From: Thermoanaerobaculia bacterium
GTDB lineage: Bacteria; Acidobacteriota; Thermoanaerobaculia; Gp7-AA8
Direction: 5' to 3'
Length of the DNA stretch: 64,000 nucleotides
NCBI GenBank assembly: GCA_035627015.1
Contig: DASPMO010000039.1
Location: 11,470 to 75,469, forward strand
The notes beneath the pieces are model-generated. The model saw only the letters and a list, made by a program, of their open reading frames with translations. It made no database searches and had not been told where the DNA came from. A program made the position numbers and the translations under genes. Positions 2,459-40,363 of this stretch are shown one piece after another. Within the stretch, counting starts at the first letter, position 1. Each line of letters opens with the position of its first letter.

Positions 2459-2546
2459 GGAGTCCGGCTTGTCCGCTCCTGCGAAGGGCAGTACCATCCT
2501 TCCTGCCGTCCAACAGGATCTCCGTCGGAAAATCGTGAGCAGCCGC

Positions 2547-12445
<9,899 letters not shown>

Positions 12446-12473
<28 letters not shown>

Positions 12474-14647
12474 GAGCTCTCCGCGAGACAACTCTCCAAA
12501 AACGCCAGCGCTCCCGGGAGCGCGGCGCTCACGTAGTCCCACGTGTGCCCGCCGCGCAGCTCGCGGTAGTCGTGGCGGACGCCGAAACCGGTCAGGAGCC
12601 CGTGGAAGTCGCGCACCGTCTCCACCACGCGCGGGTAGTCGCCCGCACCGACGTCGAGGTGGAGGCGCGGCGCCGGCTGTCCGCCGGCGGCGAACCGTTC
12701 CACGACGGAAAGCGGATCGTACTCCGCGCGCGTCCTGCTGCCGGGCGGGCCCCACACCGCCTCGTGCGCCGCCACGTCGGGCATGAGCAGGTCGCGCGAG
12801 CCGCGCTCCGCCGCGTACGGATCGCCCTCGCGGCGCGCGGCGTAAAAGGCGCCCGCGTGCGCGAAGGCGGCGCCGAAGAGGTCCGGGCGCCGCAGCGCGT
12901 GGAAGACTGCGGCCGCGCCTCCCATCGAGAAGCCGCCGATGAAGCGCGTGGCCCGCGTCGTGGCCGGCGCGAATTCCGCCTCGATCGCGGGCAGCAGCTC
13001 GTCGAGGAGATAGCTCCCGTAGCGGCGTCCCTCCTCGTCGTCGATGAACCAGCGCCGCCCGCTCTCCGGCATCACGAACAGCAGCGGCAGATGGGACGCC
13101 AGGAACGCCAGCGGCGTACGCTCCGACCACGCCTTGAAATTGCCGGCGTAGCCGTGCAGGAGGTAGCAGACGCCCTCGATCCTGCCGTCGCGCGGCATGA
13201 GCAGGCGGACGTACTTGTCGCGGCCGAGGAGCGCGCTGCGGGACGAGCGGTCCGTGCTGTCGAGGGACTGCAGCGCCTTGCGGTCGATCTTGCCGCGGTC
13301 GTTGCGGGGCATCGCCTCCACGTGAATCCAGACCGAGGGCGTCATGTACGCCGGCAGCGCGCGGCGGCATTCCGCGTTGAGCTGCGATGTCGGCACGTCG
13401 CCGATGACGAAGGCGGCCAGCGACGTTTCGCCGGCCATCGTGTACGGCACCACCGCCACTTCCTGCACGCCCGGGAGCCCCGCCACGACGGTCTCGATCT
13501 CCCCCGGCTCGACGCGGTAGCCGCCGACCTTGACCATGGCGTCGGTGCGGCCGACGAAACGGAGGGTGCCGTCCGCCTCGGCCTGCACCGAGTCGTTCGT
13601 GCGGTAGAACGTCTGCCCCTCCTCTTCGACGAGACACTCCCGCGTGCGCTCGGGATCGCCCCAGTAGCCGGACATCAGGCTCCCGCCTCCGGCGTAGAGC
13701 ACGCCGTCGCGGATGAACAGCGACGCGTACGGACAGGCCCGCCCGATCGGCACCGACCCCTCGGGCGGATCGGAGGGCTGCACCTCGTGCGCCGTGACCA
13801 CGTTCGTCTCCGTCGGCCCGTACCAGTTGTGGATGCGCGCCGCGGGGAAGGACTTGCGGATCACCGGCAGCGCGCCGCCGCGGAAGGCCTCCCCCGCCAC
13901 GATGAGCTGGCGCACGGAGGTCAGCTGGCGCCCGTCGCGCGCGCAGACCTCGGCCATCTTGGTCACGATGGAGGGGACGGAGTACCAGACCGTGATGCCC
14001 TGGCTCTCGACGAGATGCGCCAGGAACGGGGCCATCCCGCGCTGCAGTTCCGGCACGAGCACGATCGTCGCGCCACTCACGAGCGACGAGTAGATGTCGA
14101 AGATGGAGAGGTCAAAGGCGAACGAGGCGTGGCTGGAAACGCGGTCGTGCTCCGTCAGCCCCGTGTACTCCGCGGCCCAGTCGACGAACGCCGCCGTGGC
14201 GCCGAGGCTGATGGCCACGCCCTTCGGCTTCCCCGTGGAGCCCGACGTATAGAGGATGTTGAGGAGGTCCGTCGAGGCCACGTTTGCCAGCGGGACGTCG
14301 GCGCCGGCGGACAGGTTGGCGAGGTCGCCGGTCCTGAAGAAGGCGGCCGGCTCGCAGTCGCGCAGCATCAGCTCCAGGCGCGGTCCCGGGGTGACGGGGT
14401 CGATCGGCACGCACGCCGCGCCCGCCCACTGCGTCCCGAGGAGCGCCGCCACCGCGTCGGCCGACTTTTCGATGTCGATGGCCACGCGGCTTCCCGGCCC
14501 GATGCCCCCGCCGTGGAGAAAGGCGGCCACGCTGCAGGCGCGCTGCAGCAGCTCCCCGTACGTGACCGTCGTGCTCCCGTCGATCAAAGCGACGCGCTCC
14601 GGCTGCCTGCCGGCGACGTCGGCGAATCTGGCGGCAAGGCTCTTCAT
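12446..14647 (-). CDS. Stand-alone adenylation enzyme (prolyl-AMP ligase/DltA-like) fused to C-terminal alpha/beta-hydrolase esterase
   Basis: Start MKSLAARF overlaps upstream stop; [37 protein letters not shown]; by-eye pocket DLFYIAWVVK; C-terminal LLHGYAG...MPESG...GFSMGG...GGHTW esterase. Confidence 0.88.
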
Positions 14648-15765
14648 AGTCCCAGCTCGTGCGCGATCATGACCCGCTGCACCTCCGCCGTCCCGGAGTA
14701 GATCAGTCCTCCGATGGCCCCGCGCAGCTCGCTCTCGATTCCCGCCTCGGCCATGTACCCGTAGCCGCCGTGCACGCGCAGCGCGTCCATGTGCTGCTGC
14801 ACGCCCGCCTCGGCGAGCATCAGCTTCGCGGCCGAGATGCGGGCCACGGTCAGCTCCTCGGAATCGCGCATCAGCGCGTTCTCGCGCAGGAAGGCGCGCA
14901 CCGTGATGTAGCGGACGTACATGTCGGCGATGCGCGACGAGACCATCTGCAGCTTGCCGATGGGACGCCCGTTCACGCGGCGCTCGCGGGCGTACTCGAC
15001 GGCGCGCTGCGTCTGCCGCTTCATCGCGCCGAGGAGCGGGGCCAGGATGAACAGCCGCTCCCACTGCATCGCGCAGGTGAAGACGTCCCGCCCGCCGTCC
15101 CTCGCGCCGAGCATCCGGTCGCGCGGCACGACCGCGTCCCGCAGCGCCACCGACGACAGCATCGAGCCGTCCAGGCCGAGCTTCCGCTCGTCCGGGCCCG
15201 TGGTGATCCCCGTATCGCCCGCCTCGATGAGAAAGGCGCTCGCGCCGCGGGAGCCGAGGAGCGGATCGCGCGTGGCGAAGAGGAGGAACAGGTCCGCGGC
15301 CGGGGCGTTCGTGATGAACAGCTTCAGCCCGTCGATCGTGTAGCCCTTCCCCGTCTCCGCGTAGCGCGTCGAGGCCGCGCCGGAGTTGTTCTCCGACTCC
15401 GTCATGGCGTGCGCGCCGATCCACTGGCCGTTCATCAGCGGCGGGAGGTAGCGCTGGCGCTGCTCCGGGGTGGCGAAGTGCACGATCGGCTGGATCACGG
15501 CCCAGAGATGCGCGCCGAGGGCGAAGAGGAGGCCGTCATTCGAGCAACCCTCGCCGAGACCTTCGAGCACCTCGAGGATCTCGACGTTGGTGAAGCCGTC
15601 GCCGCCGAGCTCGCGCGGCACGGCCATGCTGAACAGGCCGAACTCCGCGCAGAGCTTCCACGCTTCGCGGAGACGGCGCTGTTTCTCGTGCGGATCGGCG
15701 GCCGGTGCAGGAGCCGCCGGAAGCTTCCTGGCGAACTCTCGAGCGGACTCCTGCAACGGCGACAT
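14644..15765 (-). CDS. Acyl-CoA dehydrogenase family, prolyl-S-carrier dehydrogenase-like (PltE/RedW/AnaB type)
   Basis: EGLGEGCSNDGLLFALGAHLW, IGAHAMTE, KLFITNAP, QWERLFI, HGGYGYM, IYSGTAEVQR; next to Pro-type ligase and carrier. Confidence 0.85.
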   Translation of the reverse strand: MSPLQESAREFARKLPAAPAPAADPHEKQRRLREAWKLCAEFGLFSMAVPRELGGDGFTNVEILEVLEGLGEGCSNDGLLFALGAHLWAVIQPIVHFATPEQRQRYLPPLMNGQWIGAHAMTESENNSGAASTRYAETGKGYTIDGLKLFITNAPAADLFLLFATRDPLLGSRGASAFLIEAGDTGITTGPDERKLGLDGSMLSSVALRDAVVPRDRMLGARDGGRDVFTCAMQWERLFILAPLLGAMKRQTQRAVEYARERRVNGRPIGKLQMVSSRIADMYVRYITVRAFLRENALMRDSEELTVARISAAKLMLAEAGVQQHMDALRVHGGYGYMAEAGIESELRGAIGGLIYSGTAEVQRVMIAHELGL

Positions 15766-15782: not shown

Positions 15783-17138
15783 TCAGATCGCCTCCTCCAG
15801 CTGTTCGTTCCGCTGGCGGAGCAGCGTGAGGCTGCGGGCGATGTTCGCTTCGTCGGGGAGACCGTCGTCGATCTCCGAGTTGAGGTACGCGTCGTACGAC
15901 GAGAGGTCGAGCAGGCCGTGGCCGCTGACGTTGGCCAGGACGGAGATGGGCGTGGTCGCCTCGCGCGCGGCGTCCGCCGCCGCGGCCAGGGCGTGCGCCG
16001 ACTCCGGCGCCACGATCATCCCCGTGCTGCGCGCGAACAGGACGGCCGTCTCGAAGACCTTGCGCTGCGGGAACGAGCGCGCCTCGAAGAGACCGTCCTG
16101 GTACATCGCGCTGAGCAGCGGCGAGGTGCCGTGATAGCGCAGGCCGCCGGCGTGAATTCCCGGCACGCTGACGTCGCGGCCGAGGGTCATCATGCGCACG
16201 TACGGCGTCGTGCTGGAGGCATCGCTCATGTCGTACGCGTAGAGGCCGCGCGTGAGCTTCGGGCAGGCCACCGGCTCCGCGGCGATGATGCGCACGTTCC
16301 GCCCCGACTTGCGGCTGTTGCGGATGAAGGGGAAGGAGATGCCGGCGAAGTTGCTCCCCGCGCCGACGCAGGCCGTGACGACATTCGGATAGTCGCCGAT
16401 CTCCTCCATCTGGTTGACCGCCTCCTGCCCGATGATCGTCTGGTGCAGGAGGACATGGTTCTCGCCGCTGCCGACGGCGAAGCGCGCGCCGGCGACGCTG
16501 CGGGCGATCTCGATCGCCTCGCCGTTGGCGATGGAGAGGCTGCCGATGCGCTGCGGGTCCTTGATCCGTCCCGCGCGCCCGACCTCGGTCACCTCGCTGG
16601 GGCTCTCGTGCACCTCGCCGCCGTAGACACGCATCATCACGGGGCGCAGCGGCTTCTGGCGATAGCTGACGCCGACCATGAACACGGTCGCGCCGAGGCC
16701 CGCGCGGCCGCAGGCCCACGAGATCGCGGCGCCCCACTGGCCGGCGCCGGTGCCGGTGACGATCCGTTCGACGCCGGCCTTCTTGAAGTAGTAGGCCTGG
16801 GCGATGGCGCTGTTCAGCTTGTGGCTGCCGGCGGCGTTCTGCCCTTCGAACTTCACGTAGATGCGCGACTTCGTGCCGAGGGCCTGCTCGAACGCCTTGG
16901 CGCGGATGAGCGGCGTCGGGCGGTACATCGAGTAGAGCTCGAGCACGTCGTCGGGAATGGGGACCTCGGCGCGGTCGGCCGAATTGGCCTGGCGGAACAG
17001 CTCCAGCGTCAGCTGCGGGCGGACGTCGGTGGTGCGGCCGCCGGCCGCGATCTCCAGGCGCCGCGGCGCGGGATCGCGCCGCGCGTACGCCGGAAAGTCG
17101 TGGAGGATGTTGCACCAGGTCTCGACGCGCGAGGTCAT
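15783..17138 (-). CDS. TrpB-like (TrpB2) PLP-dependent beta-substitution enzyme with Glu-to-Gly change
   Basis: YRPTPLIRA, KFEG...GSHKLN (PLP Lys), TGTGAGQWG (canonical TETGAGQWG), CVGAGSNFAG, HAGGLRYHG, APESAHA, NVSGHG. Confidence 0.9.
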   Translation of the reverse strand: MTSRVETWCNILHDFPAYARRDPAPRRLEIAAGGRTTDVRPQLTLELFRQANSADRAEVPIPDDVLELYSMYRPTPLIRAKAFEQALGTKSRIYVKFEGQNAAGSHKLNSAIAQAYYFKKAGVERIVTGTGAGQWGAAISWACGRAGLGATVFMVGVSYRQKPLRPVMMRVYGGEVHESPSEVTEVGRAGRIKDPQRIGSLSIANGEAIEIARSVAGARFAVGSGENHVLLHQTIIGQEAVNQMEEIGDYPNVVTACVGAGSNFAGISFPFIRNSRKSGRNVRIIAAEPVACPKLTRGLYAYDMSDASSTTPYVRMMTLGRDVSVPGIHAGGLRYHGTSPLLSAMYQDGLFEARSFPQRKVFETAVLFARSTGMIVAPESAHALAAAADAAREATTPISVLANVSGHGLLDLSSYDAYLNSEIDDGLPDEANIARSLTLLRQRNEQLEEAI

Positions 17139-17455
17139 TCCATCTCCTCGGCACGGCAGACAGCGAGGGTGCGGTTCACGACGTCGCCCACCGTCCGGAT
17201 GTCCCCCAGGAGGTCTTCGTCATCGAAGCGGCAGCCGAGGCGCGACTCGATCGACGTCCACAGCTCGAGATACTCCAGCGAGTTGAGGCCCAGCTCGACG
17301 AAGAGCGTTTCGCAGTCGGAGATCGTCTCCGGATCCCGCCCCTGCGGCATCAGCTCGCAGAGAGCGGTGCGCACGGCGTCTCCCACCCTCTGGACGTCGG
17401 CGGTCTGAGCGACATCGGCGATTTGCAGCACATTCGTTCCGTGGCTGTATTGCAT
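17135..17455 (-). CDS. Stand-alone carrier protein (ACP/PCP)
   Basis: LFVELGLNSLEYLELWTSIESRLGCRF...IRTVGDVV carrier fold with Ppant Ser in NSL motif. Confidence 0.8.
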   Translation of the reverse strand: MQYSHGTNVLQIADVAQTADVQRVGDAVRTALCELMPQGRDPETISDCETLFVELGLNSLEYLELWTSIESRLGCRFDDEDLLGDIRTVGDVVNRTLAVCRAEEME

Positions 17456-17472: not shown

Positions 17473-18741
17473 CTACGTCGAGTAAATGTATTGATCGACT
17501 CCCGGCTCGCGCGCCACGCCCGCCCGCTTCTCGGTCTGTTCGACCACTTCCGCGAGCACGGCGTCCGAGACCGGGTAAAACGTCGGGAACAGCAGTTCGT
17601 CGGGAGAGTCGGTGATGACTCCCTGTTTGACGGCGATGCGCGCGAGCTCCGTGCGCGGATAGATGCGCACGCGCTCGGTGACGTCAACGGCGTCGAAGCC
17701 CATGACGTCGCAGGCCTCGAACGAGCGGCGCACCGTGTCGACGGTCTCGCTCGGATGGCCGAACAGCAGGCTGCAGGAGACGGGAGCGCCGCGCTCGTGG
17801 CACATGTCGACGGCGCGCTGCACGTCCGCCACCGTGTAGCCCTTGTGGATGGCGAACAGCACCGGGTCGGCCAGGCTGTCCACGCCGAAGTGGAAGCGCT
17901 TCCGCCCGGAGGCCATGGCCACGTCGATGAACTCGGGGGTGAAGGCATTCGGGTGCGGGTTGAAGAAGCCGTCCCACTCGATCTCGACGCCGCTGTTGAT
18001 GATCTCGCGCAGCAGCGCCGTCGCCGCCTTGACCGGTACGTTGAAGACCGAGTCGCAGAAGAAGACGCGCTTCACGCCCTGGCGCTTGAGGTTGCGGATC
18101 TCGGCCACGACGTCGGCCGGCGAGCGGTGCGTGATGCGGAACCCCTCCACCGCCGGGTAGTTGCAGTACTGACAGCGGAACGGGCAGCCGAAGTGCGTGG
18201 CGATGCCGATAGGGTGGTCCCGGTATTTGCTCTTCTCGACGTACGGCCGCTCGTACACGCCGTTGATCGTGTCCGAGTAGTCCTCGAAGACCGGCGCCGC
18301 CGCGGCCTCGCCGTTCAGGACGTGGCGCACGAGCATGCGCGCCGCGTTGTGGCCCTTGCTGGCGATGGCGTAGTCGGCGCCGAGGTAGCGGCGCATCGGG
18401 TCGGGCACGGCGTTGATGGCGGCGCCGGCGATGGCGATCGGCACCAGCGGATAGCGCTCGCGCAGCTCGGAGACGAGACGTCTGGTCTGCGGCAGGGCCG
18501 AATCCACGTTGCCCGGGCCGATGTCGAGGTTGCGCACCACGACGAAGATCAGGTCGATCCCATAGCCGTCCGGATACGGTGCCGCCGCACCGTCGGCCAG
18601 GTTGGCCAGGTCGACGATCTCGATGTCGTGGCCATCCCGCACCAGCGCCTCGGCGTTGTATTCGAGGCCCACGGGAAATACGGGCGGCAGCATGAACGCC
18701 GGGTTGACGATCAGGATGCGCGCGCTCTGGCGAACGGTCAT
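17473..18741 (-). CDS. Cobalamin-binding radical SAM enzyme (TsrM-like N-terminus)
   Basis: GCPFRCQYC CxxxCxxC motif, FFCDSVFN, HFGVDS; N-terminal NP..PP..P.GL...RNLD B12-binding-like domain; ATG overlaps upstream stop. Confidence 0.85.
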   Translation of the reverse strand: MTVRQSARILIVNPAFMLPPVFPVGLEYNAEALVRDGHDIEIVDLANLADGAAAPYPDGYGIDLIFVVVRNLDIGPGNVDSALPQTRRLVSELRERYPLVPIAIAGAAINAVPDPMRRYLGADYAIASKGHNAARMLVRHVLNGEAAAAPVFEDYSDTINGVYERPYVEKSKYRDHPIGIATHFGCPFRCQYCNYPAVEGFRITHRSPADVVAEIRNLKRQGVKRVFFCDSVFNVPVKAATALLREIINSGVEIEWDGFFNPHPNAFTPEFIDVAMASGRKRFHFGVDSLADPVLFAIHKGYTVADVQRAVDMCHERGAPVSCSLLFGHPSETVDTVRRSFEACDVMGFDAVDVTERVRIYPRTELARIAVKQGVITDSPDELLFPTFYPVSDAVLAEVVEQTEKRAGVAREPGVDQYIYST

Positions 18742-19409
18742 GCGGAAGGACCTCCAGTCCTGCACAGCTCGAGGCAATCGGTCAGGGTGGCTTGAACTCT
18801 CTCCCGCGGCACGCCCTCGATGCCCCAACTGAAGGCCAGGACCGCCGTGGTGGTGGGCACGATCATGGTGTGCGCGGAGTCGCGTACGCCGACGATGGAG
18901 ATGACGCGCTCCCGGTCGCGGAGCACCGGGAACCCTTTGGGGACGGCTTCGCTCTTGGTCTTGCCGAGGGGGACGATCTGCTCATCGCCATTCGCGATGT
19001 CGAGCGTGAGGTCGCCATCGATCGCATGAAGGTCGAAGAGGCCGACCGGAATCAGGTTGCGCAGCGAGGCCACGTTCGCGGCGTCGACGAGGGAGTTGAT
19101 GCGGGGGAACTTCCCCTTCATCACGTAGCGGGTGACCACATTCTCCACGGCGGGGACCGCGGCGCCGAATTGCTCGGAGAAGCGGCGACTCAGTTCGCGG
19201 TAGAGGGGGATCTCCGGTGCGCCGGCGACGTCGGCGGCCGTGCGCCCGCTCCAGCGGGCCAGGAGGTCGCGGACCGCATCATCGAGCCAGGGAGAGTCCT
19301 TTGACGCCGAAACGCCGTCCGCCGTGACGCTTTCGACGAACAGCCCGGGGACACGGACACGCACGTCCTGCGCGATGACGATGATCGGGTTTAGGGCGAT
19401 GGTGTTCAT
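18738..19409 (-). CDS. Stand-alone B3/4 (PheRS beta editing-like) domain protein
   Basis: PAVENVVTRY..GKFPRINSLVDAANVASLRNLIPVGLFDLHAIDGDLTL..A.GDE....LG....VLRD motif typical of B3/4 domains. Confidence 0.88.
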   Translation of the reverse strand: MNTIALNPIIVIAQDVRVRVPGLFVESVTADGVSASKDSPWLDDAVRDLLARWSGRTAADVAGAPEIPLYRELSRRFSEQFGAAVPAVENVVTRYVMKGKFPRINSLVDAANVASLRNLIPVGLFDLHAIDGDLTLDIANGDEQIVPLGKTKSEAVPKGFPVLRDRERVISIVGVRDSAHTMIVPTTTAVLAFSWGIEGVPRERVQATLTDCLELCRTGGPSA

Positions 19410-19545
19410 GGTGTTACGTCGTGCGCTCCCCCGCACAGAGTGCTGATTCCACACGTCTCCCGTGACGAGCAGGCACACATCTGCCCCTCGTCTGCCGTGG
19501 CACTTATAGTGAAAATAGCTGTCTACTATTGAACCTTGACTGTGC

Positions 19546-20105: not shown

Positions 20106-20546
20106 CTACCGGTCCGGCCGTCCCATCAGGCACATCACCGTCTCGGTCCCGATCGCGCACACCGTTTCGGCGCCGTCCTTCGTCACCGTCACACGGAACT
20201 CGCAGACGGTGAGGGTGCGGCCGGAGCGCACCACCTGGCCGGTGGCGCGGAGGCGGTCGCCGTCGGCGGGAGCGACCATGTTGATCTTGTACTCGACGCT
20301 GAGGACTGAGCTGTCCGTGGGCATCATCGAGTAGCCGGCGTAGCCGGCCGCGCTGTCGGCGATGATGGCCACGACGCCTCCGTGAAAGTAGCCGTGCTGC
20401 TGCGTGAGCTCGGGGCGGAACGGGAGCTCGATCTCGACGAGGCCCGGCTCGACGCGCGTCATCGTCGCGCCGAGGTAGTCCATCACGGCCTGGCGCGCGA
20501 AGCTCTCGCGCACGCGGGCTTCGAAGCCGGGATCGCGGGGCGTCAT
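20106..20546 (-). CDS. PaaI-family hotdog thioesterase
   Basis: QQHGYFHGGVVAIIADSAAGYA, SVEYKINMVAPA.GDRLRATGQVVRSGRT; ATG overlaps FAAL stop. Confidence 0.92.
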   Translation of the reverse strand: MTPRDPGFEARVRESFARQAVMDYLGATMTRVEPGLVEIELPFRPELTQQHGYFHGGVVAIIADSAAGYAGYSMMPTDSSVLSVEYKINMVAPADGDRLRATGQVVRSGRTLTVCEFRVTVTKDGAETVCAIGTETVMCLMGRPDR

Positions 20547-22135
20547 CGCGCCGACTCTACCCATTCGCGGCAGCGGTAGCGCTGGATTTTTCCGCTGGTG
20601 GTCCGGGCGATGGAGCCGCGGGGCAGCCAGTGGATGGTCACGCCGGAGATCCCGTAGGCCTCGGCCAGCACCGCGCGCGCGTGCTCCTCGACCGCGGCCG
20701 CGTCGGCGCGCGGCACCGATTCCGATTCGACCAGTACGTGGAGCATCTCCGTCTGCGAGTGTGGGTCCGGCACGCCGCACGCCGCCACGCCGCCGGCGAT
20801 CCCTCCTCCGACGATCGGCTCCACGAGAGCCTCAACCTGCACGGGACTGATGTTGCGCCCTCCGATGATGATGATGTCCTTGATCCGGCCGGTGACGTAC
20901 AGCTCCCCGCCGGAGAGATACCCGAGGTCGCCGGTGCGGAGAAAGCCATCCTCCCGTTTCAGCTCGCCGTCGCCCTCGCCCCAGTAGCCGTCGATCACGC
21001 TCGGTCCGCGCACCTCGATCTCGCCGACCTGCCGCTCGGGCAGCGGCCGGGCCTCGCGGTCGACGATCCGTACTTCATGTCCCGGAACCGCGCTGCCGAC
21101 CGAGACCACCCCCTCGTTCTCATCGACGCCGTACAGCGCATCGGGATCGGGGATCGTCACCGCCAGCGTGGCCTCGGCCAGCCCATACACCGGCAGCATG
21201 GTCTCGGGGCGGAACCCGTGACGGCCGAAGGCCTCGATGAAGCGCGCCAGCGTCGACCGGCGCACCGGCTCCGCGCCGCACAACGCCACCCGCCACGACG
21301 AGAGGTCGAGGTCTTCGACCGCGCGCCGCGCCGCGACGCGCGCGCAGACCTCGTAGGCCGAATTCGGCGCGGGCGACAAGGTGCCGCGGTGGCGGCTGAT
21401 CGTGCGCAGCCACGAGAGCTGATTGCGCACGAACGTCGCGGGATCGCTGGCCACGAGCGGACACTGCCAGCCGAGGGCGTAGGAGATGCCGATGATGCCC
21501 ATGTCGTGAAAGAACGGCAGCCACGTGACCAGGACGTCGCCGTCGCGATGGCGGATTGCCCGTCCGATCGCGTCCACGTTCGCGGCGATGTTGCGGTGCC
21601 GGACGATCGCCAGCCGCGGCGTGCGCGTCGAGCCGGACGTCGCTTGGAGATGCGCGATGGCGTGCGGATCGGCGGTGAGTGGGAGCGGCGCACCGTCGCT
21701 CTCGCAAAGCTCGTGTGCCGTCACGCACTGCAGCACTGAGAACTGCGGCGCCGGCGGCCACGACTTGCCGACGATCCACCGTGCGCCCGCGACCTGCGCG
21801 AGCTGGTCGAGTGGCGGCGCGTACGGCACGGAGGGGCGATTCGGCCGCTCGGGGCGCGGAGCGGCGACGACGATCGGCACCACGCCCGAGAAGAGCGCCC
21901 CGAAGTAGACGGCGAAGAACTCGCGCGACGTCGGCAGGGCGCCAAGGAAGCGGTCGCCGCGGCGGAGTCCGCGCGCGGCGAGCCCCGCCGCGGCGCGCGA
22001 GGCCTCGCGGTAGAGCGCCTCGTACGAGAGCGCCTCTTCCTCCCCCGCTCCGGCCACGATGCGGATCGCGGTCTGCTCCGGCGCACGCGCCAGGCTGTCC
22101 GCGAACGCATCGAGCACCGTGGCGTGGCGCATCAT
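20543..22135 (-). CDS. Fatty acyl-AMP ligase (FAAL)
   Basis: LQATSGST, WLPFFHDMGII, LCGAEPV, VYGLAEATLAV, LRTGDLGY, RTTSGKIQR. Confidence 0.9.
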   Translation of the reverse strand: MMRHATVLDAFADSLARAPEQTAIRIVAGAGEEEALSYEALYREASRAAAGLAARGLRRGDRFLGALPTSREFFAVYFGALFSGVVPIVVAAPRPERPNRPSVPYAPPLDQLAQVAGARWIVGKSWPPAPQFSVLQCVTAHELCESDGAPLPLTADPHAIAHLQATSGSTRTPRLAIVRHRNIAANVDAIGRAIRHRDGDVLVTWLPFFHDMGIIGISYALGWQCPLVASDPATFVRNQLSWLRTISRHRGTLSPAPNSAYEVCARVAARRAVEDLDLSSWRVALCGAEPVRRSTLARFIEAFGRHGFRPETMLPVYGLAEATLAVTIPDPDALYGVDENEGVVSVGSAVPGHEVRIVDREARPLPERQVGEIEVRGPSVIDGYWGEGDGELKREDGFLRTGDLGYLSGGELYVTGRIKDIIIIGGRNISPVQVEALVEPIVGGGIAGGVAACGVPDPHSQTEMLHVLVESESVPRADAAAVEEHARAVLAEAYGISGVTIHWLPRGSIARTTSGKIQRYRCREWVESAR

Positions 22136-23720
22136 GCCGGGGCCATCGCCAGCGCGGCGCGGCCGGCGCCGCGGCGGTTGCGCGAGCGCTCCAGCCAATC
22201 GGCGATGTGCCCGTACTTGCCGTCGAAATCGGCCTTGAGCAGCTCCTCCTTCAACTCGCCCGCGGCCGTGTAGTACGGCGCTTCCAGCTTCTCCAGGAAC
22301 GCGGTGTGGCGCTCGACCTCCTGCTTCTCGGCCGCCTTCAGCCGGGCCACGGCCTTGAGCCGCACCAGGCGCTTGGGCCGTTTCTCGATCTCGAAGGCGC
22401 GGACGAAGAAATCGTCCGAGCATTTGGCCAGGATGCGCTGCAGCTCGCTCGGGCGCATGTTGCGCGGGAAGATGCCGACGAACGAGAAGTGCTGATAGTT
22501 GATGTGCTCCATGATGATGCGGTGGTCCTCGACGTCCTGCCGCGCGCCGTGGAGGACGCCCTGGAACGGGTAGTCGGTGATGCAGTAGAAGTTCGGGTGG
22601 ATCATGCGCGCCTCGGCGCACCACTGCGCGGTCCGTTCGACGGCGCCGCGGTCCTGCGCGTCCGTGCCGAAGATCAGGCCGCCGTGGATGAAGATGTCGT
22701 GCTCCGCCATCTTCAGCAGCCGCGTCCTCTGCTCCCCCGCCTCGACGTTCTTGTTGAAGGCGCGGAGCACGTCCGGGTCCTCCGACTCCACGCCGAAGTA
22801 GTAGTCCTCGAACCCGGCGGCCCTGAGGTCTTCCACCAGCTCGTCGTCATCGGCGATGCTCACGCGGGTGAGGCCGATGAACTTGTACGGCGCGCCGCGG
22901 AAGGCGCGGGCAACCTCCTGGCAGAAGTCCCGGGACGTCCCGAAGTTCAGGTCGGTGACGAGGAAGCGCGTGACGCCGTTGGCCGCGTGCAGCGCATCGA
23001 CCTCGGCGCGAATGGCGGCCACGTCCTTCGGCCGGAACTGCCGCCCGAGGAGCCGCACGGCATAGCAGAACGAACAATTGAACGGACAGCCGCGCGACAT
23101 CGACACGGGCGCCCACGGCAGCGTCGGCGCGTTGCGGAGGAGCGCTGGCTGGATGGCCACGTCGAGATTGCCGTAGCGGTGCAGGTCGGTGGTGACCAGG
23201 AGCCCTTCGTCGTCGACGTAGCCGAGGTTGTGCACCGTGGAGAGATCGCCGCCGCTCTCCAGCGTCTCGATGAGCTGCAGCGCCGGGACCTCTCCCTCAT
23301 TGAAGATCACGAAGTCGACGTACTTCAGCGCCTCGTACGGCGCGAACGTGGCGTGCGGCCCTCCCATGATGGCCTTCGCGTCACGGCGCTTGCGCTTCTT
23401 CACCACCCGCATCGCGGCGAGGTTCGACCAGAAATGCGTCCCCAGGCCGGACACGAGGATGTAGTCGTACGACTCGATCGGATACTCCGCCGGGTCTTCG
23501 CCCCAGAGCATCTGCAGACGTCGAATTGCGCGTCCGGCAGGTGCTGCATGAGGAACGAGCCGACGTAATACAGCCCGTCGCTGTACGTGCCCGGCTCGTA
23601 CGAGACGTACGCCCACGACATCGAGTCGCGGGTGCGGAAGCCGCGGTGCGTGAGCTCGCTCTTGTCGCGGCGCGAGTGATGGTTGCCGAGCTGCAGCAGC
23701 AGGATCTTCAGTGGCCGCAT
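22132..23720 (-). pseudogene. Cobalamin-binding radical SAM enzyme with single-base frameshift near 23517
   Basis: MRPLKILLLQLG...LPDAQFDV in one frame continues as LQMLWGEDP...RGCPFNCSFC in another; span 1589 nt, so one added base gives 530 codons. Real mutation or sequencing error. Confidence 0.8.
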
Positions 23721-25063
23721 GATCCGTCTCCTTGTTCGAGGGTGGGCTGCAGCAGCGGGCCGGCGCCGGGCGGGCCTCCGCGTGCGGCCATCTTCCGCCG
23801 CATCACGTCCTTCATCTCGTTCTTGATGCGGCGCTGGATCCGCTCCGGATCGTTGACGTGGCGCTGCGCCCACGCCAGCACGTCCCGCGCCTCGGAGGCG
23901 GACATGTGCGGGTGGTCCCAGACGAGGTGATAGAGATCGAATTTGCTCAGGTCCGTCTCATTGATCAGCGGGGCCATGTCCCGCCACAGCTTCGTGCCGT
24001 GGAACGGCGTGAGCAGCGTGAGCTGGCAGGCGAAGAGCCCCTCGTTCGCGAGCTGGCGCACGTCGAACTGCATGTCTTCGATCGTGTCGCGCTCGAAGCC
24101 GACCATGAACGTGCCGAGGGCGCGGCGGCCGTATTGATTGAGCTCGCGGACCGTGTCGCGCACGCGATAGACGTCGTCGCGCTTGTGCACGTCGGCGTGG
24201 TTCGCGTCCTTGTACGACTCGATCCCGATGATGGCGCCGTCCATGGCCCGGTCGGTCAGCTCGCCGATGCGGCCACGGATCAGGTCCGCACGCGTGAGGC
24301 AGATCCAGGGGAGGCTGCGCTCGGCCAGCGCGTCGACCACCTTCTCCGCCAGCGGGTTGTCGAGGAAAAAGCTCTCGTCGTAGATGATCACGTGCGCCAC
24401 GCGCGCCTCGCGGTACGCGTCCAGCGCGTCGGTGATGTTCTCCATGGCGATCGCTTCTTCGCGCGGGTTGAAGATCGGGGTCGAGCAGAACGTGCAGCCG
24501 ACGTTGCAGCCGCGCTTCGAGTAGAGGTAGCCGACCGGCGAGCTCACGCCGCGGAAGCCGCTCCGCCCGAGCATGGCCGGGTGACGCACGAACGGCAGCG
24601 GACGGCCGTAGACGTACTGATGGACCGCGGCCTCGCCCGGGCCTTTGATCAGGCGGGTGAAGTGCTTCTCCAGTCCCGGGCCGATCGAGCCGTAGTTGCC
24701 GCCCCAGATCTCCTGCACGCCGGCCTCGCGCGCGGCGGTGGCCATCTCGATGGCCACGGGCGTGGACCAGGTGTAGAAGCTGATGCCGACCATGTCCCAG
24801 CGCTCGGAGTGCAGCTTGTCGAGGTACTCCTGCCAGGTCGGATACTCGAGCATCTCCACGTCGGGGACGTTGTGCTTGATGAAGCGCAGTCCCGTGGGGG
24901 GGCAGGTGACGGAGAGGCGGTCATCGACGTCGACCGCGCACGTCCAGGCCATGTACGTATCGGTCTTGTCGTACCAGTGCCCGCCGACGCCGTCCGGCTC
25001 GATGAGCGCCTCCTTTGGCGCCGTCGACAGCAGGACGCGGCGGGGAACGTTCGAAGCACTCAT
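23708..25063 (-). CDS. Cobalamin-binding radical SAM enzyme
   Basis: DMVGISFYTW...IWGGNYG B12-like domain, KRGCNVGCTFC, IYDESF, IGIES, TFMVGF, LTPFHGT. Confidence 0.88.
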   Translation of the reverse strand: MSASNVPRRVLLSTAPKEALIEPDGVGGHWYDKTDTYMAWTCAVDVDDRLSVTCPPTGLRFIKHNVPDVEMLEYPTWQEYLDKLHSERWDMVGISFYTWSTPVAIEMATAAREAGVQEIWGGNYGSIGPGLEKHFTRLIKGPGEAAVHQYVYGRPLPFVRHPAMLGRSGFRGVSSPVGYLYSKRGCNVGCTFCSTPIFNPREEAIAMENITDALDAYREARVAHVIIYDESFFLDNPLAEKVVDALAERSLPWICLTRADLIRGRIGELTDRAMDGAIIGIESYKDANHADVHKRDDVYRVRDTVRELNQYGRRALGTFMVGFERDTIEDMQFDVRQLANEGLFACQLTLLTPFHGTKLWRDMAPLINETDLSKFDLYHLVWDHPHMSASEARDVLAWAQRHVNDPERIQRRIKNEMKDVMRRKMAARGGPPGAGPLLQPTLEQGDGSCGH

Positions 25064-25081: not shown

Positions 25082-26305
25082 TCACGATGCGCGTGACACG
25101 ATCAGGCTCGAGTTGATGCCGCCGAAGCCGACGGCGTTGATGAGGACGTTGCGCAACGCGCGCGGACGTGCCTCGGAGGCGACGTCGAAGCCGTCGCACT
25201 CCGTCCGCGGCGTGCGCAGGTTCAGCACGGGAGAGACGGTCTGGTGCTGCAGCGCCGCGATCGCGGCGGCGAGATTGAGGGGGCCGCTGGCCCCGAAGGT
25301 GTGGCCGACGTGGCCCTTGATGGAGGTGAGCGTCGGCGCGTGGCCGTTGCCGCCGAACACGGTGCGCACGGCCTCGAGCTCGCACGCGTCGCCGCGCGGG
25401 ACTCCCGAGGCGTGGGAGTAGAGACAGTCGATGTCGTGCGGGTCCATGCGGGCGTCTCGGAGCGCGCCGGCCATCGACGAGACGATGCCCGCCACGGACT
25501 GCAGCGCGATCTGCTCGCCGCCGGTGGTGGTGGCGAAGCCGGTGAGCTCGCCGAGGATGGTGGCGCCGCGTGCCAGCGCGTGCTCCCGCTTCTCGAGCAC
25601 GAACGCCGCCGCCCCTTCCCCGACGATCATCCCTTCCGCGCCGGCATCGAACGGCCGCGGAGAGGGGGGCCCGTTGGTGGCCGTGCTGAGGACACGCAGC
25701 GCCTCGAAGCCCGAGAAGGCGATCGGCGTCACCACTCCCTCGGTGCCGCCGGCGACGGCCCAGGACAACATCCCCGCCCGGATGTGCGCCACGGCCACCC
25801 CGATGGCCTGCAGCCCGCTCGCGCAGGCGCCGGCCACCGTGTATTGCGGGCCGTGCAGACCGTACGTGAGCGCGGTCATGCTCGCGGCCATGTTCGGGAT
25901 CAGGGAGGGGATGAGGTACGGCGTGATCTTGCGCGGCCCGCGTGAGTCCTGGCGGACCACGCCCGCCTCCATGTTCGGCAGGCCTCCCATGCCGACGCCC
26001 ATGAACACGCCGCCGCCGTCGTGACCGGCGATGCCGCTCTGCTCGAGCGCACCGCCCGCGGCCGCGACGGCGTAGCGGACGAAGCGATCCATCCGCTTCA
26101 GCTCGTGCGCGTAGGGGCCGGTGGCCGCCGGCAGGGCGTCGTCGTCGATCTGCGCCGCGCGGCGGCAGGCAAAGCGCTCGCTCGGAAAGCGGGTCAGCGG
26201 CCCGATCCCCGAGACGCCGTTCAGGAGCTGCTCCCAGAACGCGCCGGGCGACGCGCCGAGAGGAGTGAGCAGACCGAGACCGGTGATGACGACGCGGCAG
26301 GACAC
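25082..26305 (-). CDS. Discrete beta-ketoacyl-ACP synthase (FabF-like)
   Basis: RVVITGLG, catalytic GACASG (Cys), SHASG (His), KGHVGH (His), GEGAAAFVLE, NAVGFGGINSS. Confidence 0.92.
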   Translation of the reverse strand: MSCRVVITGLGLLTPLGASPGAFWEQLLNGVSGIGPLTRFPSERFACRRAAQIDDDALPAATGPYAHELKRMDRFVRYAVAAAGGALEQSGIAGHDGGGVFMGVGMGGLPNMEAGVVRQDSRGPRKITPYLIPSLIPNMAASMTALTYGLHGPQYTVAGACASGLQAIGVAVAHIRAGMLSWAVAGGTEGVVTPIAFSGFEALRVLSTATNGPPSPRPFDAGAEGMIVGEGAAAFVLEKREHALARGATILGELTGFATTTGGEQIALQSVAGIVSSMAGALRDARMDPHDIDCLYSHASGVPRGDACELEAVRTVFGGNGHAPTLTSIKGHVGHTFGASGPLNLAAAIAALQHQTVSPVLNLRTPRTECDGFDVASEARPRALRNVLINAVGFGGINSSLIVSRAS

Positions 26306-26311
26306 GGAGCG

Positions 26312-26575
26312 TCAGGTCGTTTCTGCCACGCCGGAAGTGCGCGTGGCGACGTAATCCACGAGGTCCTGCATCGTCTCGATGTGCTCCATGACCGTCTCGT
26401 CGAACTCCACGCCCAGGCGGTCCTCGAGATAGAGCGTCATCTCGAACAGCTTGATGGAGTCGAGGCCCGGGATCGCCGTCGCCACGCGCGATTCGGGGCG
26501 AAGGTGCGACACGTCCTGTTCGAGGTACTCCCCGATATAGCGAACGACGTCCTGAAAGAGCGAGGCATGCTCCAT
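26312..26575 (-). CDS. Acyl carrier protein
   Basis: GLDSIKLFEMTLYLEDRLGVEFD...IETMQDLVDYV; AGGAGG RBS upstream of ATG 26575. Confidence 0.88.
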   Translation of the reverse strand: MEHASLFQDVVRYIGEYLEQDVSHLRPESRVATAIPGLDSIKLFEMTLYLEDRLGVEFDETVMEHIETMQDLVDYVATRTSGVAETT

Positions 26576-26811
26576 AGGGTCCTCCTGCGCCGGATTTTCC
26601 GAGATTAACTCCATACAACGTGCGGTCCGGACTTCCTGAAGTCAAGGGGGCGGGTGCGGGGCGTGCCGGGGCAAATGCCGCCGCCTCCATGAATTTCCAC
26701 AAGACCCCAACATCTGTCCGCGCGGTCGAGTGCACTTTGATCATCAAGTGCACTGGCTTACACCACGTGGTCGACACGGACCGATTCCACGACTCTCACA
26801 GGAGGTTTTCC

Positions 26812-33209: not shown

Positions 33210-33245
33210 ACGCGGTTTATCATCGGGCCGGAACTCCTGACTTCT

Positions 33246-34085
33246 ATGTGTCCTTACGTGCCGAGTTGGCCAACCGCCGGCGACGTTGCGCATTTCCACC
33301 AGCACGGCTGGGTCACGTCGCCCCCGATCGTGCCGGAAGACCTCCTGGACGAGGCTGCCGAGACAGTCGAGGCCTACTACCTCGGCGAGCGCGATCACCA
33401 TCTGCCGGTGCAGGGGTTTCTCGACTGGCATCCCGAGCACGGCGAAGGGCTGCGCCTCAACGACTACGTCTCCCTACAGTCCGACACCCTGCGCAGGCTG
33501 GTCTGCCTGCCGGAGATTGCACGGGCGGCGGCCATGCTGATCGGCGTGGAGCGCGTGCGCCTCTTCCACGATCAGCTCATCACCAAACCACCCGCCGCCG
33601 GCGTGGACACCCGGGTCGGCTGGCACACCGACAAGTCATACTGGAAGACCTGCTCGTCCGAGAAGATGCTGACCGCCTGGATCCCGTTCCAGGATTGCTC
33701 GGAGGAGGCCGGCCCGCTGGCCGTCGTCGACGGGAGCCACAAATGGCAGGACACGGACTGGATGTCGACGTTCGTCGTCCAGGATTTCGCCTCCATCGAG
33801 GAGCGGCTGGAGCGTCCCATCCGGCCGCGCCCGCTGCTGCTGAAACGGGGGCAGGTCAGCTTCCATCACGCCCGGACGATCCACGGCAGTTTCGCCAATC
33901 GCAGCAACGGCTTCCGCACCGCGCTGGCCGTGCATCTTCAGGATGAGGACAACGTCTATACGCGGCCCGAGGCGGTCGACGGACGCGTGCCCGTGCACAT
34001 CAACGATCTTCTTTGCCGGCGGCGACCGGACGGCAGTCCGGATTACAGCGACCCGGACATCTGCCCGACGCTCTGGCCCGTGTGA
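33246..34085 (+). CDS. PhyH-family Fe(II)/2OG dioxygenase (copy 1)
   Basis: LFHDQLITKPP, WHTD (HxD), LTAWIPFQD, GPL.VVDGSH, FHHARTIHGS..N. Confidence 0.9.
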   Translation: MCPYVPSWPTAGDVAHFHQHGWVTSPPIVPEDLLDEAAETVEAYYLGERDHHLPVQGFLDWHPEHGEGLRLNDYVSLQSDTLRRLVCLPEIARAAAMLIGVERVRLFHDQLITKPPAAGVDTRVGWHTDKSYWKTCSSEKMLTAWIPFQDCSEEAGPLAVVDGSHKWQDTDWMSTFVVQDFASIEERLERPIRPRPLLLKRGQVSFHHARTIHGSFANRSNGFRTALAVHLQDEDNVYTRPEAVDGRVPVHINDLLCRRRPDGSPDYSDPDICPTLWPV

Positions 34086-34093
34086 CCACGAAC

Positions 34094-37000
34094 ATGACCA
34101 CGATGGCCATCGCGCATCCGAATCGAGGGCTGCCCCTGTCACGGCAGCGGTCGGGCGTCTTCTCCCCGCGCCGCGAGCGCACAGCCATCCACATGACCGC
34201 GACGCCGCCGCAGCTCGCGGCGGCCGTGGCTGTGGTGCTCTTCCGCTATCACGGCCACGCCCCGGTCCCGGTCGGCCTCGGAACGTCCGCTCCCCAGCTG
34301 GTCGAGGTGGAGATCGATCCCTCCGCGACCATCGGCGCGCTGCGCGCGCGCATGGCCGGCGCCTTCGAAGCCTTGCGCGGAGCCGCGCCGGCGCAGGAAG
34401 GAAACCGCAATCCGGAATTCGATGTGAGCGTGCTCGCGTCGGAGCCCGCGGGAGACTGGCGCGAGGACGTGGTCCTCTACCCGCTCGAGGAGCGCGTGGA
34501 AGCGCTGTGGCGCGCGCGCCTGCTCGACGTGAAGATGGTCGAGCGCTTCCTGACGCACGTCCGCGCCGTGCTCGCGGCGGATGACGGGCAGCCGGCCGAC
34601 GGCATCGACATCGTTTCCGGCGACGAGAAGGAGTTCCTGCGACAGTTCGAAGTCGGACCGCCGGCCGAGGCGATGCCGCCCGTGCACGCCGCCTTCGTGG
34701 CGCAGGCGCGGCGCACGCCGGAGCAGCCGGCCCTGCAGATCGGCGCGGTCACGATCTCCTACGCGGAGATGGAGCGGCGGTCGGCGGTCATCGCCGGCGC
34801 CCTCACCTCGCGCGGGGTGGCCGCCGGCGAGGCGGTGGCGCTCTGCGTCTCGGCGGCCGAGGGGGTCACGGCGCTGGTGGGTATCCTTCGCGCGGGCGCC
34901 GCGGCCGTACCGCTCGACGGCACGCTCCCGCCGGCGCGTCTCCGGTCGCACGTCGAGCAGGCGAACGTGCAGTGGGCGGTCGTCGACGAGCGCCACCGCC
35001 CTCTCGTGCCGGTCGAGCAGGTGGTCACGCTCGACGCTCTCGACTGGAACGCCGAGGCCGGCCTCATCGACCCGCCGGTGACGGACGAGTCGCCCGCCTA
35101 CATTCTTTATACCTCCGGCTCGACCGGGACGCCGAAAGGTATCCGCATGCCGCACCGGGGGCTGAGCAACGTCACCAGCTGGCAGATGGCCCGCAGCGCG
35201 CCCGCGCCGCGCACGCTGCACCGCACCTCGCTCGCCTTCGACGTCTCGATGCAGGAGATCTTCTCCACGTTGTGCGCGGGCGGCTGTCTCGTGGTCGCCG
35301 ACGACGAGGTCCGCGGCGATCCTTCCCGGCTGCCCGATTTCATCGCCGAGCACCGCATCGAGCGTGCGTTCGTGCCGCCGGTGTCGCTGTACCAGATCGC
35401 GGCCGCGCTCGATGCGCGTCCGCAGCCGCTGCCGTCGCTGCGCGAGGTCTACGTCGCCGGCGAGGCGCTGAAGCTCGAGCCGGCGGTGGTGCGGATGTTC
35501 CGGAGCGTCGACGCGATCCTGGAGAACCACTACGGTCCGACCGAGACGCACGTCGCCACGACGTACCGCCTCGAAGAGTCGCCGCTGCGCTGGAGCACGC
35601 GCCCCCCGATCGGGCGTCCCGTTCCCGGCCTCGAGGTGCGCATCCTCGACGGACGCGCCAGGCGCGCCCCCCTCGGTATTGCCGGCGAGATCATCGTCCG
35701 CGGCCGACAGGTCGCGGACGGCTATCTCCTCGGCGTTCCGTTCATCGCGGAGGACGGCACGCCCGCCTACGCCACCGGCGACCTGGGACGCTGGACCGCC
35801 ACGGGCGATCTCGAGTTCCTCGGCCGCAAAGACCGCCAGGTGAAAGTGCGCGGGTATCGCATCGAGCCGGGCGAGATCGAGCTCGCGCTGCAGGCGCAGC
35901 CGGGCGTCCGCGCCGCCGTCGCCGCGGCGCTCGACGACGGCGGCTCGACGCGCCTCGTCGCCTGGATCGTGCCCGACACCATGTTCCCCGGCGTGGCCGC
36001 CATCCGCAAACGGCTGCTGGACGTCCTGCCCGAGTACATGGTCCCGGCGCTGAGCGGCTTCGCGGTCATCGATCGGTTGCCGCTGACGCGGACAGGGAAA
36101 GTCGATCTCTCCGCGCTCAAGCCGCCCGGACAGGGCGAGACCGATCCGGCCCTCCACTACGCTCCCTCGCGGAACGACGTGGAGGCGGCCGTCGCGGAGA
36201 TCTGGCGCCGCGAGCTGGGGCTCGAGCGCGTCGGCATTCACGACGACTTCGTGGAGATCGGCGGCCATTCGCTGGTCGCCATCCGCATCGTGTCGCAACT
36301 GAACGAGCGCTTCGGCGTCAACCTCCCCCTGCGCCTGCTGCTGCGCGGCGGAACCGTGGCCACGGTGGCCAGCCGTCTCGTCGACAACAGCGCGGCGCAA
36401 CCGGAGAACGGGGCGCTCGTGCGCTGCCCGCTGCCCGACGGCAAGATCGTCATCGCACCGTCCGCGGGCGAGGCGCAGTATCTCTGGCAGGACGTCTTCG
36501 CGCTCGACAGCTACGGCGCGCCGGTCGTGTACGACCGCGACGCGGTCGTCGTCGACGTCGGCGCGCACGTCGGCCTCTTCTCGCTGTACGCCCTCGCCGC
36601 CGCGCCGGAGGGACGCGTCGTGGCCATCGAGCCGGTGCCGGTGCTGGTCGAGGCGCTCAAGCGGAACACCGAAAGCCACGGCAGCCGCATCGCCTATTAC
36701 TCCACTGCCGTCGGGGACCACGACGCGAGCGCGTCGATGACGTACTACCCGAAGCTGTCGGGGATGAGCTCCCTGCGCGCCAGTCCGGCGGCCGACGCCT
36801 CGCTGCTGCGCCGCATCATGCACAATCTCCTGGAGCGGCGGCCCGAGGCCGATACGCTCCTCGGCGAGCTGGACGAGCTCGTCGCCGAGCGGCTCGAGGC
36901 GCAGACGTTCGAGTGCACCGTGCGCCGGCTGGAGAGCATCCTGGACGAGGCCGCGCCGGAGCGGATCGACGTCCTCAAGATCGACGTGCAGCGCTACGAA

Positions 37001-40327: not shown

Positions 40328-40363
40328 CAATCGTTCGGAACCGAAGGATACGCGGGTGCGGCC

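Follow-up and report, generated by a model that had tools for sequence, protein, structure and literature searches.

The beta subunit of tryptophan synthase (TrpB) activates indole through a glutamate (E109 in Salmonella numbering), and few biocatalysts have been engineered as heavily to make non-canonical amino acids. Laboratory-evolved variants that carry glycine at this site, E104G in the Pyrococcus enzyme and E105G in the Thermotoga enzyme (e.g. the 'tyrosine synthase' TmTyrS, Tm9D8 E105G), accept phenols and naphthols. The TrpB2 branch of the family consists of stand-alone, O-phosphoserine-dependent enzymes, as in Sulfolobus solfataricus (6hul, 4qys, 6hte). The pyrrole cassettes PltF/PltL/PltE, RedM/RedO/RedW and PigI/PigG/PigA and the anatoxin enzymes AnaC/AnaD/AnaB combine a small carrier protein with a free-standing adenylation (A) domain of the code DLFY(L/I)A(L/W)V(C/V)K and with a prolyl-carrier dehydrogenase that resembles acyl-CoA dehydrogenases, and they include no pyridoxal phosphate (PLP) enzyme. 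Here we describe a TrpB2-like PLP enzyme of 451 aa with glycine at the catalytic-glutamate site (Gly-type), encoded at 15783..17138 on the minus strand of a 64,000-nucleotide stretch from a Thermoanaerobaculia bacterium (contig DASPMO010000039.1, positions 11,470 to 75,469 of the forward strand; the whole stretch is called the window below). The same kinds of gene surround it as in the pyrrole and anatoxin cassettes, but here the TrpB-like gene separates the gene for the carrier protein from that for the dehydrogenase, and an esterase comes after them. It is likely to be a functional enzyme that uses a nucleophile other than indole.

We observed that positions 16734-16760 of the plus strand read ccactggccggcgccggtgccggtgac, and that the reverse complement (gtc acc ggc acc ggc gcc ggc cag tgg) translates to VTGTGAGQW, residues V127 to W135 of the protein. 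In HMMER alignments, 'vtgtgagqwg' faced the 'vtetgagqwg' or 'ttetgagqwg' of the solved Sulfolobus TrpB2 chains 6hul_B, 4qys_B and 6hte_B without a gap (E 8e-106 to 6e-95, with 6hul_B the best PDB match at 8e-106); the glycine, G129 (codon at 16752-16754), therefore sits in the catalytic-glutamate column. The loss of this glutamate had been claimed by a model that saw only the letters and the open reading frames (the sequence-only reading), and both the minus-strand translation and the ungapped alignment confirmed it. The same reading had the PLP lysine retained. This is indeed so, as the Schiff-base lysine K107 (GSHK, 16818..16820, minus strand) is present and was invariant in our alignment of homologues (A1). 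R334 (GGLRYHG, 16137..16139, minus strand), the phosphate loop G(A)GSN and S405 (the N1 serine) are retained as well. R334 falls in the column of Asp305 of TrpB1 and was invariant in alignment A1, in the Gly and Glu groups alike; in published work, this arginine of TrpB2 enzymes is described as touching the phosphate of O-phosphoserine.

The protein scored 139 bits against Pfam PALP. Among the NCBIfam models it passed NF009057, 'TrpB-like PLP-dependent enzyme' (540.4 bits, cutoff 366), missed the cutoff of TIGR01415, 'trpB_rel' (471.8 against 518.85), and was far below that of TIGR00263, the canonical TrpB1 (130 against 392). The AF2 model (pLDDT 86.8) gave Foldseek TM scores of 0.84/0.91 to 6hul_B, and identity to the Sulfolobus enzymes was 40-42%. 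The features of canonical TrpB1 are absent, with Gly129 in place of Glu, a loop Trp in place of His and Arg334 in place of Asp305. The TrpB2 features that are present are the fold with its N-terminal extension, the GSHK lysine, the GAGQWG loop with its Trp, the GGLRYHG arginine and the SGHG serine, and the one that is absent is the indole-activating glutamate of (T/A)ETGAGQWG. The first half-reaction, from O-phosphoserine to the aminoacrylate, is presumably shared with TrpB2. We conclude that the protein descends from TrpB2 yet should not be filed as a tryptophan synthase, because the catalytic glutamate is missing and the TIGR01415 cutoff was failed. The change is the same, in the same column, as in the E104G and E105G variants, and PDB 8egy was among its structure matches; unlike those variants, which are of the TrpB1 type, arose by directed evolution and combine free nucleophiles with serine, the enzyme belongs to a natural clade of the TrpB2 type with compensating substitutions of its own and an apparent carrier-protein partner.

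We examined how widely the glycine is shared. Among the best 120 homologues in a collection of 5.8 billion proteins (100% to 49% identity), the catalytic-glutamate column held Gly in 119 and Ala in one, and GSHK was retained in all 120. Neither chance nor sequencing error accounts for the glycine. The named Gly-type members came from Myxococcus, Streptomyces, Bauldia, Thermoanaerobaculia, Streptosporangiaceae and a metagenome-assembled genome (MAG) of Acidobacteriota, which supplied the closest named relative (88% identity). NCBI names the homologues from Myxococcus, Streptomyces and the Acidobacteriota MAG 'TrpB-like pyridoxal phosphate-dependent enzyme'. Most of the Gly-type homologues (P0007-P0119) carry the JGI label 'tryptophan synthase beta chain', which is probably wrong for the Gly clade. 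A genome scan with alignment A1 mostly matched Glu-type TrpB2 (the pattern TGAGQWG being common to both types), and gave 77 Glu-type loci, which served as the control set, and 3 further Gly-type loci. The Glu-type loci showed xTETGAGQWG in TrpB2 and, at several of them, IAETGAGQHG in neighbouring TrpB1 genes, in agreement with the consensus (A/T)ETGAGQ(H/W)G from which the sequence-only reading had argued. With a Gly-specific DNA pattern, 120 stretches were retrieved from metagenome contigs. When 324 sequences were placed in a neighbour-joining tree with TrpB1 as the root, 198 Gly-type sequences formed a single clade, sister to the bacterial Glu-type TrpB2 and spanning several phyla.

When the two groups were compared, the catalytic column held Gly in 100% of the Gly-type sequences and Glu in 82/82 of the Glu-type. 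Five further positions were fixed differently between the Gly and Glu clades, namely 51 (S/E), 220 (F/Y), 225 (G/V), 226 (E/L) and 260 (A/G). The full signature S51-G129-F220-G225-E226-A260 was found in 169/196 tabulated main-clade sequences, the others being off at 1-2 positions, and position 226 was Glu or Asp throughout the tabulated signatures of this clade. In the window enzyme, G225-E226 (VGSGENHVLLHQT) is encoded at 16461..16466 on the minus strand, and Glu-type TrpB2 has V-L at these positions. Residues 223-226 align with G189-T190-A191-A192 of Salmonella TrpB, a segment adjoining known active-site-lining residues; on the strength of this alignment, E226 is a candidate for a relocated acid/base residue and may lie in the active site. 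The dN/dS of the TrpB-like gene against two close relatives was 0.15 and 0.29, and the GC content at its third codon positions was 0.92. Judged from these comparisons, the electrophile-forming half of the enzyme is conserved and under selection, and the nucleophile side appears remodelled, with a new conserved glutamate at 226.

Glycine was also seen sporadically outside this clade. Six Gly-type TrpB2 sequences inside the Glu clade (L102, L122, L170, L180, L185, L197) had Leu at 226 rather than Glu and had no carrier-protein cassette near; their neighbours included a VWA protein, a cytochrome c/rhodanese protein and LigAB. Tandem TrpB2 pairs were found at L102 (4344-5711 and 5785-7176, plus strand; 78% identical) and L185 (9508-11118 and 7990-9426, minus strand). 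In these two, where the flanks sufficed, the downstream copy was the Gly one (VTGTGAGQWG), and the upstream copy read TTETGAGQWG or VTETGAGQWG. This looks like an independent, recent Glu-to-Gly change after duplication. More distant TrpB2-like clades (P0127, P0132, P0135, P0143, P0147, P0156, P0167, P0171, P0174, P0185, P0187) had Asp, Ala, Ser or His in the catalytic-glutamate column and changes of their own at 220-226, and the nucleophile pocket of the family may have diversified several times. Searching a library of 50%-identity representatives mainly yielded fragments, though the Asp, Ala, Ser and His residues of these distant clades were seen there. Domain fusions among long TrpB2-like proteins were considered and dropped, as the matches were only frameshifted or mis-called proteins.

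In the window, five closely packed genes run in the same direction on the minus strand, and the TrpB-like gene is the third of them. Directly upstream of it is a free-standing carrier protein of 106 aa (17135..17455), peptidyl (PCP) or acyl (ACP), with its serine in GLNSL, which was recognized from its translation and from weak PDB matches to ACPs. Its stop codon overlaps the start of the TrpB-like gene (ATGA), an arrangement of translational coupling. Upstream of the carrier protein in turn lies a B12-binding radical S-adenosylmethionine (SAM) enzyme (17473..18828; Pfam Radical_SAM and B12-binding; 205 bits to TIGR04072, below its cutoff), and a radical SAM gene occupied the same position in the closest relatives, the metagenomic contig L003 and the locus L126 (802-855 bits). 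The gene after the TrpB-like one encodes a flavoenzyme of the acyl-CoA dehydrogenase family (14644..15765, 373 aa). It aligned end to end with RedW (NF045652, 309 bits) and PigA (NF053553, 280 bits), the next NCBIfam family scoring 197, and its best PDB match was 4irn, 'Prolyl-ACP dehydrogenase' (272 bits against 222 for the next), which we take to be AnaB of the anatoxin pathway. By these scores it is closest to the prolyl-carrier-protein dehydrogenases. The last gene (12446..14647) encodes an A domain (about aa 1-470; Pfam AMP-binding) fused to an alpha/beta-hydrolase of the 'Esterase' family (about aa 471-733; PF00756). The specificity code of this A domain is DLFYIAWVVK. It matches DLFYLALVCK, presumably the code of the pyrrole-pathway proline activators, at 7/10 positions, with two conservative changes and L322W, and the PltF-type proline ligase 6o6e was among the best single-domain PDB matches (226 bits). 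A single gene of 992 aa at 12446-15424 was rejected here, since GC content by codon position resolves this stretch into two genes that use separate frames (14644-15765 and 12446-14647).

The cassette recurred in other genomes. A carrier-protein open reading frame (ORF) stood directly upstream of the TrpB-like gene at 58/68 main-clade Gly-type loci and at 0/76 Glu-type loci. When only loci flanked by at least 2.5 kb on each side were counted, 14/17 from the two main Gly subclades had a dehydrogenase as well as an A domain within 6 kb, and 0/58 Glu-type loci did. (All-against-all clustering of stop-to-stop neighbour ORFs was noisy, with shadow ORFs in high-GC DNA, and only its carrier-protein and LpxL-like families were usable.) The Gly-type loci here never adjoined trp genes and had carrier-protein, adenylation and flavoenzyme genes instead. 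The sequence-only reading had proposed to check whether the Glu-to-Gly variants cluster in biosynthetic gene clusters, and this is what we found: the Gly-type genes lie in clusters of the carrier-protein/nonribosomal peptide synthetase (NRPS) type and the Glu-type genes do not. A changed nucleophile, which that reading had also put forward, is therefore the best reading on sequence and gene context, and we keep it conditional as to chemistry. The conserved cassette of PCP, proline adenylation, prolyl-PCP dehydrogenase and esterase, and the appearance of Glu226 together with the loss of Glu129, go beyond what it had noticed.

The gene order carrier protein, TrpB-like enzyme, dehydrogenase, A domain, esterase was found in Myxococcus (L001), in Streptomyces angustmyceticus (L004) and in L003. 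The L003 enzyme is 79% identical to that of the window, and its cassette additionally has a radical-SAM gene, a single NRPS of condensation (C), A, PCP and thioesterase (TE) domains, MbtH and ABC exporters. The A domains beside other Gly-type TrpB-like genes had the codes DLFYIAWVCK (17), DLFYLALVCK (6) and close variants, the Streptomyces cassettes showing exactly DLFYLALVCK. We considered, and rejected, that the cassette A domain loads the product of the TrpB-like enzyme, as the cassette codes are the same as, or close to, the one presumed for ordinary proline activators. A domains beside prolyl-type dehydrogenases on S. clavuligerus pSCL4 (DLFYLALVCK) and on Mycetohabitans pBRH01 (the fragment ---YLALVCK) had codes of the same kind, and neither replicon was among the TrpB-like matches listed.

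A second arrangement, dehydrogenase, A domain, carrier protein and TrpB-like enzyme, lay beside an LpxL/HtrB-like acyl-ACP acyltransferase (L005 at 6878-11398, L100, L108, L128, L154, L158, L165 and others). L005, for which gene calls were available, also has glycosyltransferases and an AsnB-like amidotransferase. This arrangement suggests that the same building block acylates a glycolipid or polysaccharide. A different cassette was seen on an S. angustmyceticus plasmid (NZ_CP104318.1, 19008-24961; L206), which encodes a LysE exporter, an ACP, a Gly-type TrpB-like enzyme, a 637-aa FAD-NAD(P)-binding protein and an acyl- or aryl-CoA-ligase-like enzyme, and adjoins genes for PabB, a class IV aminotransferase, isochorismatase and DAHP synthase. 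This hints that the tethered nucleophile there may be an aminobenzoate-type arene and not a pyrrole. In the small subclade C13, the neighbours are BtrH-like, DegT, KSIII or Lys/Orn N-oxygenase genes. Across the loci, what stays constant is the pairing of a carrier protein with the TrpB-like enzyme, and the partners vary.

The best explanation of the whole, to which we give a little short of an even chance, is a functional, neofunctionalised TrpB2-branch enzyme that works in a five-gene proline/carrier cassette. That the enzyme works on or with the proline/carrier-protein system is, taken by itself, probable; C-alkylation of a tethered pyrrol(in)e specifically is put forward more tentatively. 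The chemical steps, the identity of the nucleophile and the regiochemistry are what we infer from the observed substitution, its fixation in the clade, the kept electrophile-forming residues and the gene association. The A domain would load L-proline on the carrier protein, and the flavoenzyme would oxidise the prolyl thioester to a pyrroline- or pyrrole-2-carboxyl thioester. Like TrpB2, the TrpB-like enzyme would convert O-phospho-L-serine (or serine) to the PLP-bound aminoacrylate. The carrier-tethered, electron-rich ring would then replace indole and attack the aminoacrylate with one of its own carbons (C4 or C5), giving a beta-(carboxypyrrolyl)alanine still anchored through the ring carboxyl. 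The change of Glu129 to Gly would remove the anchor for the indole N-H and give room for the tethered ring, and Glu226 may act as the acid/base. Attack through C4 or C5 is favoured because a product linked through N1 or C3 would come off the carrier unaided, by forming a lactam with the thioester, and the downstream esterase, the condensation domain and the LpxL- or BtrH-like acyltransferases need an acyl-S-carrier. A dehydroprolyl enamine would be a better nucleophile than an aromatic 2-acylpyrrole, so the ring may be alkylated after the first oxidation and before the second. The upstream B12-radical-SAM enzyme is probably a C-methyltransferase acting on a cassette intermediate, and it could methylate the ring; CloN6 C-methylates the pyrrole-2-carboxyl unit of clorobiocin. 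The product would finally be released by the fused esterase, or taken up by a condensation domain or acyltransferase, for the neighbouring NRPS.

The window has such an NRPS. It is encoded convergently with the cassette (2469..12473, plus strand), and its 3334 aa comprise (C-A-PCP)x3-TE by Pfam domain counts. This NRPS is probably the consumer of the cassette product, an amino acid that would reach it after release by the fused esterase. All three of its A domains have the Phe-like code DTWTVAGV(C/G)K, and the single-module NRPS of L003 (14752-18687, minus strand) has DTWTIAGVGK. The shared codes suggest a homo-oligomeric peptide of one unusual aromatic residue, and Phe-like codes in the neighbouring NRPS are consistent with an aromatic amino acid as the product. 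The product is probably an undescribed pyrrole-type amino acid rather than tryptophan.

Several observations weigh against this explanation. The Phe-like code of the NRPS could simply mean Phe or Trp. Both proline-type enzymes of the cassette fall below their curated equivalog cutoffs, the flavoenzyme below those of RedW (650 bits) and PigA (500 bits) and the A domain with 301 bits against 317, and because of this proline appears, by sequence, to be the closest model for the two and not a proven substrate. Code position 322 is Trp in most cassettes in place of the canonical Leu. Subclade C13 and some other loci lack the dehydrogenase. Compared with indole, a pyrrole that bears a 2-acyl thioester is poorly nucleophilic at carbon, and gene adjacency is no proof that the tethered ring is the nucleophile.

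We weighed four other explanations. In the first, which we consider unlikely, the enzyme makes a free non-canonical amino acid from O-phosphoserine and a small diffusible nucleophile (a thiol, amine, azole, phenol or similar), and the NRPS A domains load it; the pyrrolyl-S-carrier protein would then supply only an N-acyl cap, as in enterobactin biosynthesis, with a Fes-like esterase. The L003 layout (A domain, PCP and acyl-CoA dehydrogenase with a single C-A-PCP-TE, MbtH and ABC exporters) does resemble EntE/EntB/EntF, and the weak best match of the window's esterase domain was enterochelin esterase. The NRPS A codes are unusual and identical across modules, and the loss of the glutamate is compatible with N- or S-nucleophiles, going by what is generally known of TrpB E109 mutants. 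However, the carrier-protein, A-domain and dehydrogenase partners are kept at loci that show no NRPS (e.g. the glycosyltransferase/LpxL-like ones), the TrpB-like gene is translationally coupled to the carrier-protein gene at most loci, and no gene for the supply of a small nucleophile is conserved alongside it.

The gene context fits equally an attack by the ring nitrogen of the prolyl- or pyrrolyl-S-carrier on the aminoacrylate, after which the N-(2-amino-2-carboxyethyl) derivative would cyclise to a lactam of the pyrrolo[1,2-a]pyrazinone type. Without a glutamate to hold the indole N-H, attack through nitrogen would be expected over attack through carbon, as known from TrpB E109 variants and from the reactivity of indoline. 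However, the six-membered lactamisation would release the product by itself and would leave no role for the esterase, the LpxL- and BtrH-like acyltransferases or the condensation domain, and a dehydrogenase of the canonical prolyl type is unlikely to accept a prolyl thioester alkylated on nitrogen. We regard such C-N bond formation as improbable.

The conserved glutamate at 226, which appears exactly where Glu129 is lost, could also be read as its replacement, with the enzyme still using indole or a substituted indole and supplying Trp or a Trp analogue to the NRPS. All the other catalytic residues of TrpB2 are kept, and the NRPS A codes do resemble Phe/Trp codes. Against this, no trpA, tnaA or other trp gene is associated with the Gly-type loci, whereas Glu-type loci often have trpB1 nearby; the association with the proline/carrier-protein enzymes is strict, and the score is below the TIGR01415 cutoff. 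Retained indole use is thus very improbable. Finally, the singleton loss-of-function allele that the sequence-only reading had allowed for is excluded, and a dead pseudoenzyme or scaffold, or a decayed allele, is hardly credible even though the lost residue is regarded as universally conserved in TrpB, as the glycine is a fixed feature of a clade sampled with some 200 sequences from several phyla, the dN/dS values indicate purifying selection, and the PLP and O-phosphoserine machinery (PLP lysine, phosphate loop, N1 serine, substrate arginine) is intact and invariant.

Other genes of the window were also recorded. The cluster has four radical-SAM genes, the cassette one at 17473-18828 and others at 22132-23616 and 23708-25063 (all minus strand) and at 39896-42220 (plus strand). 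Three of the four have a B12-binding domain (one below the Pfam cutoff), and that at 23708-25063 has none; one is nearest to TIGR04072, 'lipid biosynthesis B12/radical SAM'. They keep company with a fatty-acyl-AMP ligase (20543-22624), a FabF-type ketosynthase (25082-26305) and an ACP (26312-26614). The four may point to extensive C-methylation, either on a lipid tail or on the pyrrole. Between a radical-SAM gene and the fatty-acyl-AMP ligase lies a stand-alone B3/4 domain protein (18738-19478, minus strand), related to the editing/tRNA-binding domain of the PheRS beta subunit. A tri-domain protein of A, PCP and FkbM-type methyltransferase domains is encoded at 33947-37189 (plus strand), with a PhyH dioxygenase adjoining at 33210-34085. 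Its A code, DVQFYAHVAK, resembles what we take to be the classical in-line NRPS proline code, and it may be a second proline-activating enzyme of the cluster.

PLP enzymes that capture an aminoacrylate-type electrophile with an unusual nucleophile are known from natural-product beta- and gamma-substitution (SbnA, CysK-type synthases, LolC, CndF/Fub7), and BtrK, which acts on gamma-Glu-S-BtrI, is a PLP enzyme whose substrate is anchored to a carrier through its side-chain carboxyl. These belong to different fold subfamilies or reaction types, and none is TrpB2-like. We know of no such PLP substitution enzyme with a carrier-tethered nucleophile, and we found no description of the Gly-type TrpB2 clade, or of a TrpB-like/prolyl-carrier cassette, in the open-access full-text literature. 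The wider proposal, for which we claim somewhat less than an even chance, is that of a natural C-C bond formation in the TrpB family, in which a PLP-aminoacrylate meets a carrier-held nucleophile (a pyrroline or pyrrole formed from proline and, at sister loci, perhaps arenes of the aminobenzoyl type) by way of a Glu-to-Gly 'gateway' and a relocated catalytic glutamate. The probable nucleophile being a carrier-tethered, proline-derived ring, a screen of free nucleophiles alone, of the kind that the sequence-only reading had proposed with Ser and O-phosphoserine, could miss the activity.

If this proposal is true, the enzyme would be the first beta-substitution PLP enzyme known with a carrier-tethered nucleophile, and its products would be a new class of heteroaryl-alanine building blocks. 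The automatic annotation of the Gly-clade genes as 'tryptophan synthase beta chain' should probably be corrected. The finding is of interest for biocatalysis and for natural-product enzymology: a natural clade that already bears the 'unlocking' Glu-to-Gly change of the laboratory offers ready-made starting points for new beta-substitution chemistry, and it points to an undescribed amino-acid building block of NRPS and glycolipid-type clusters.

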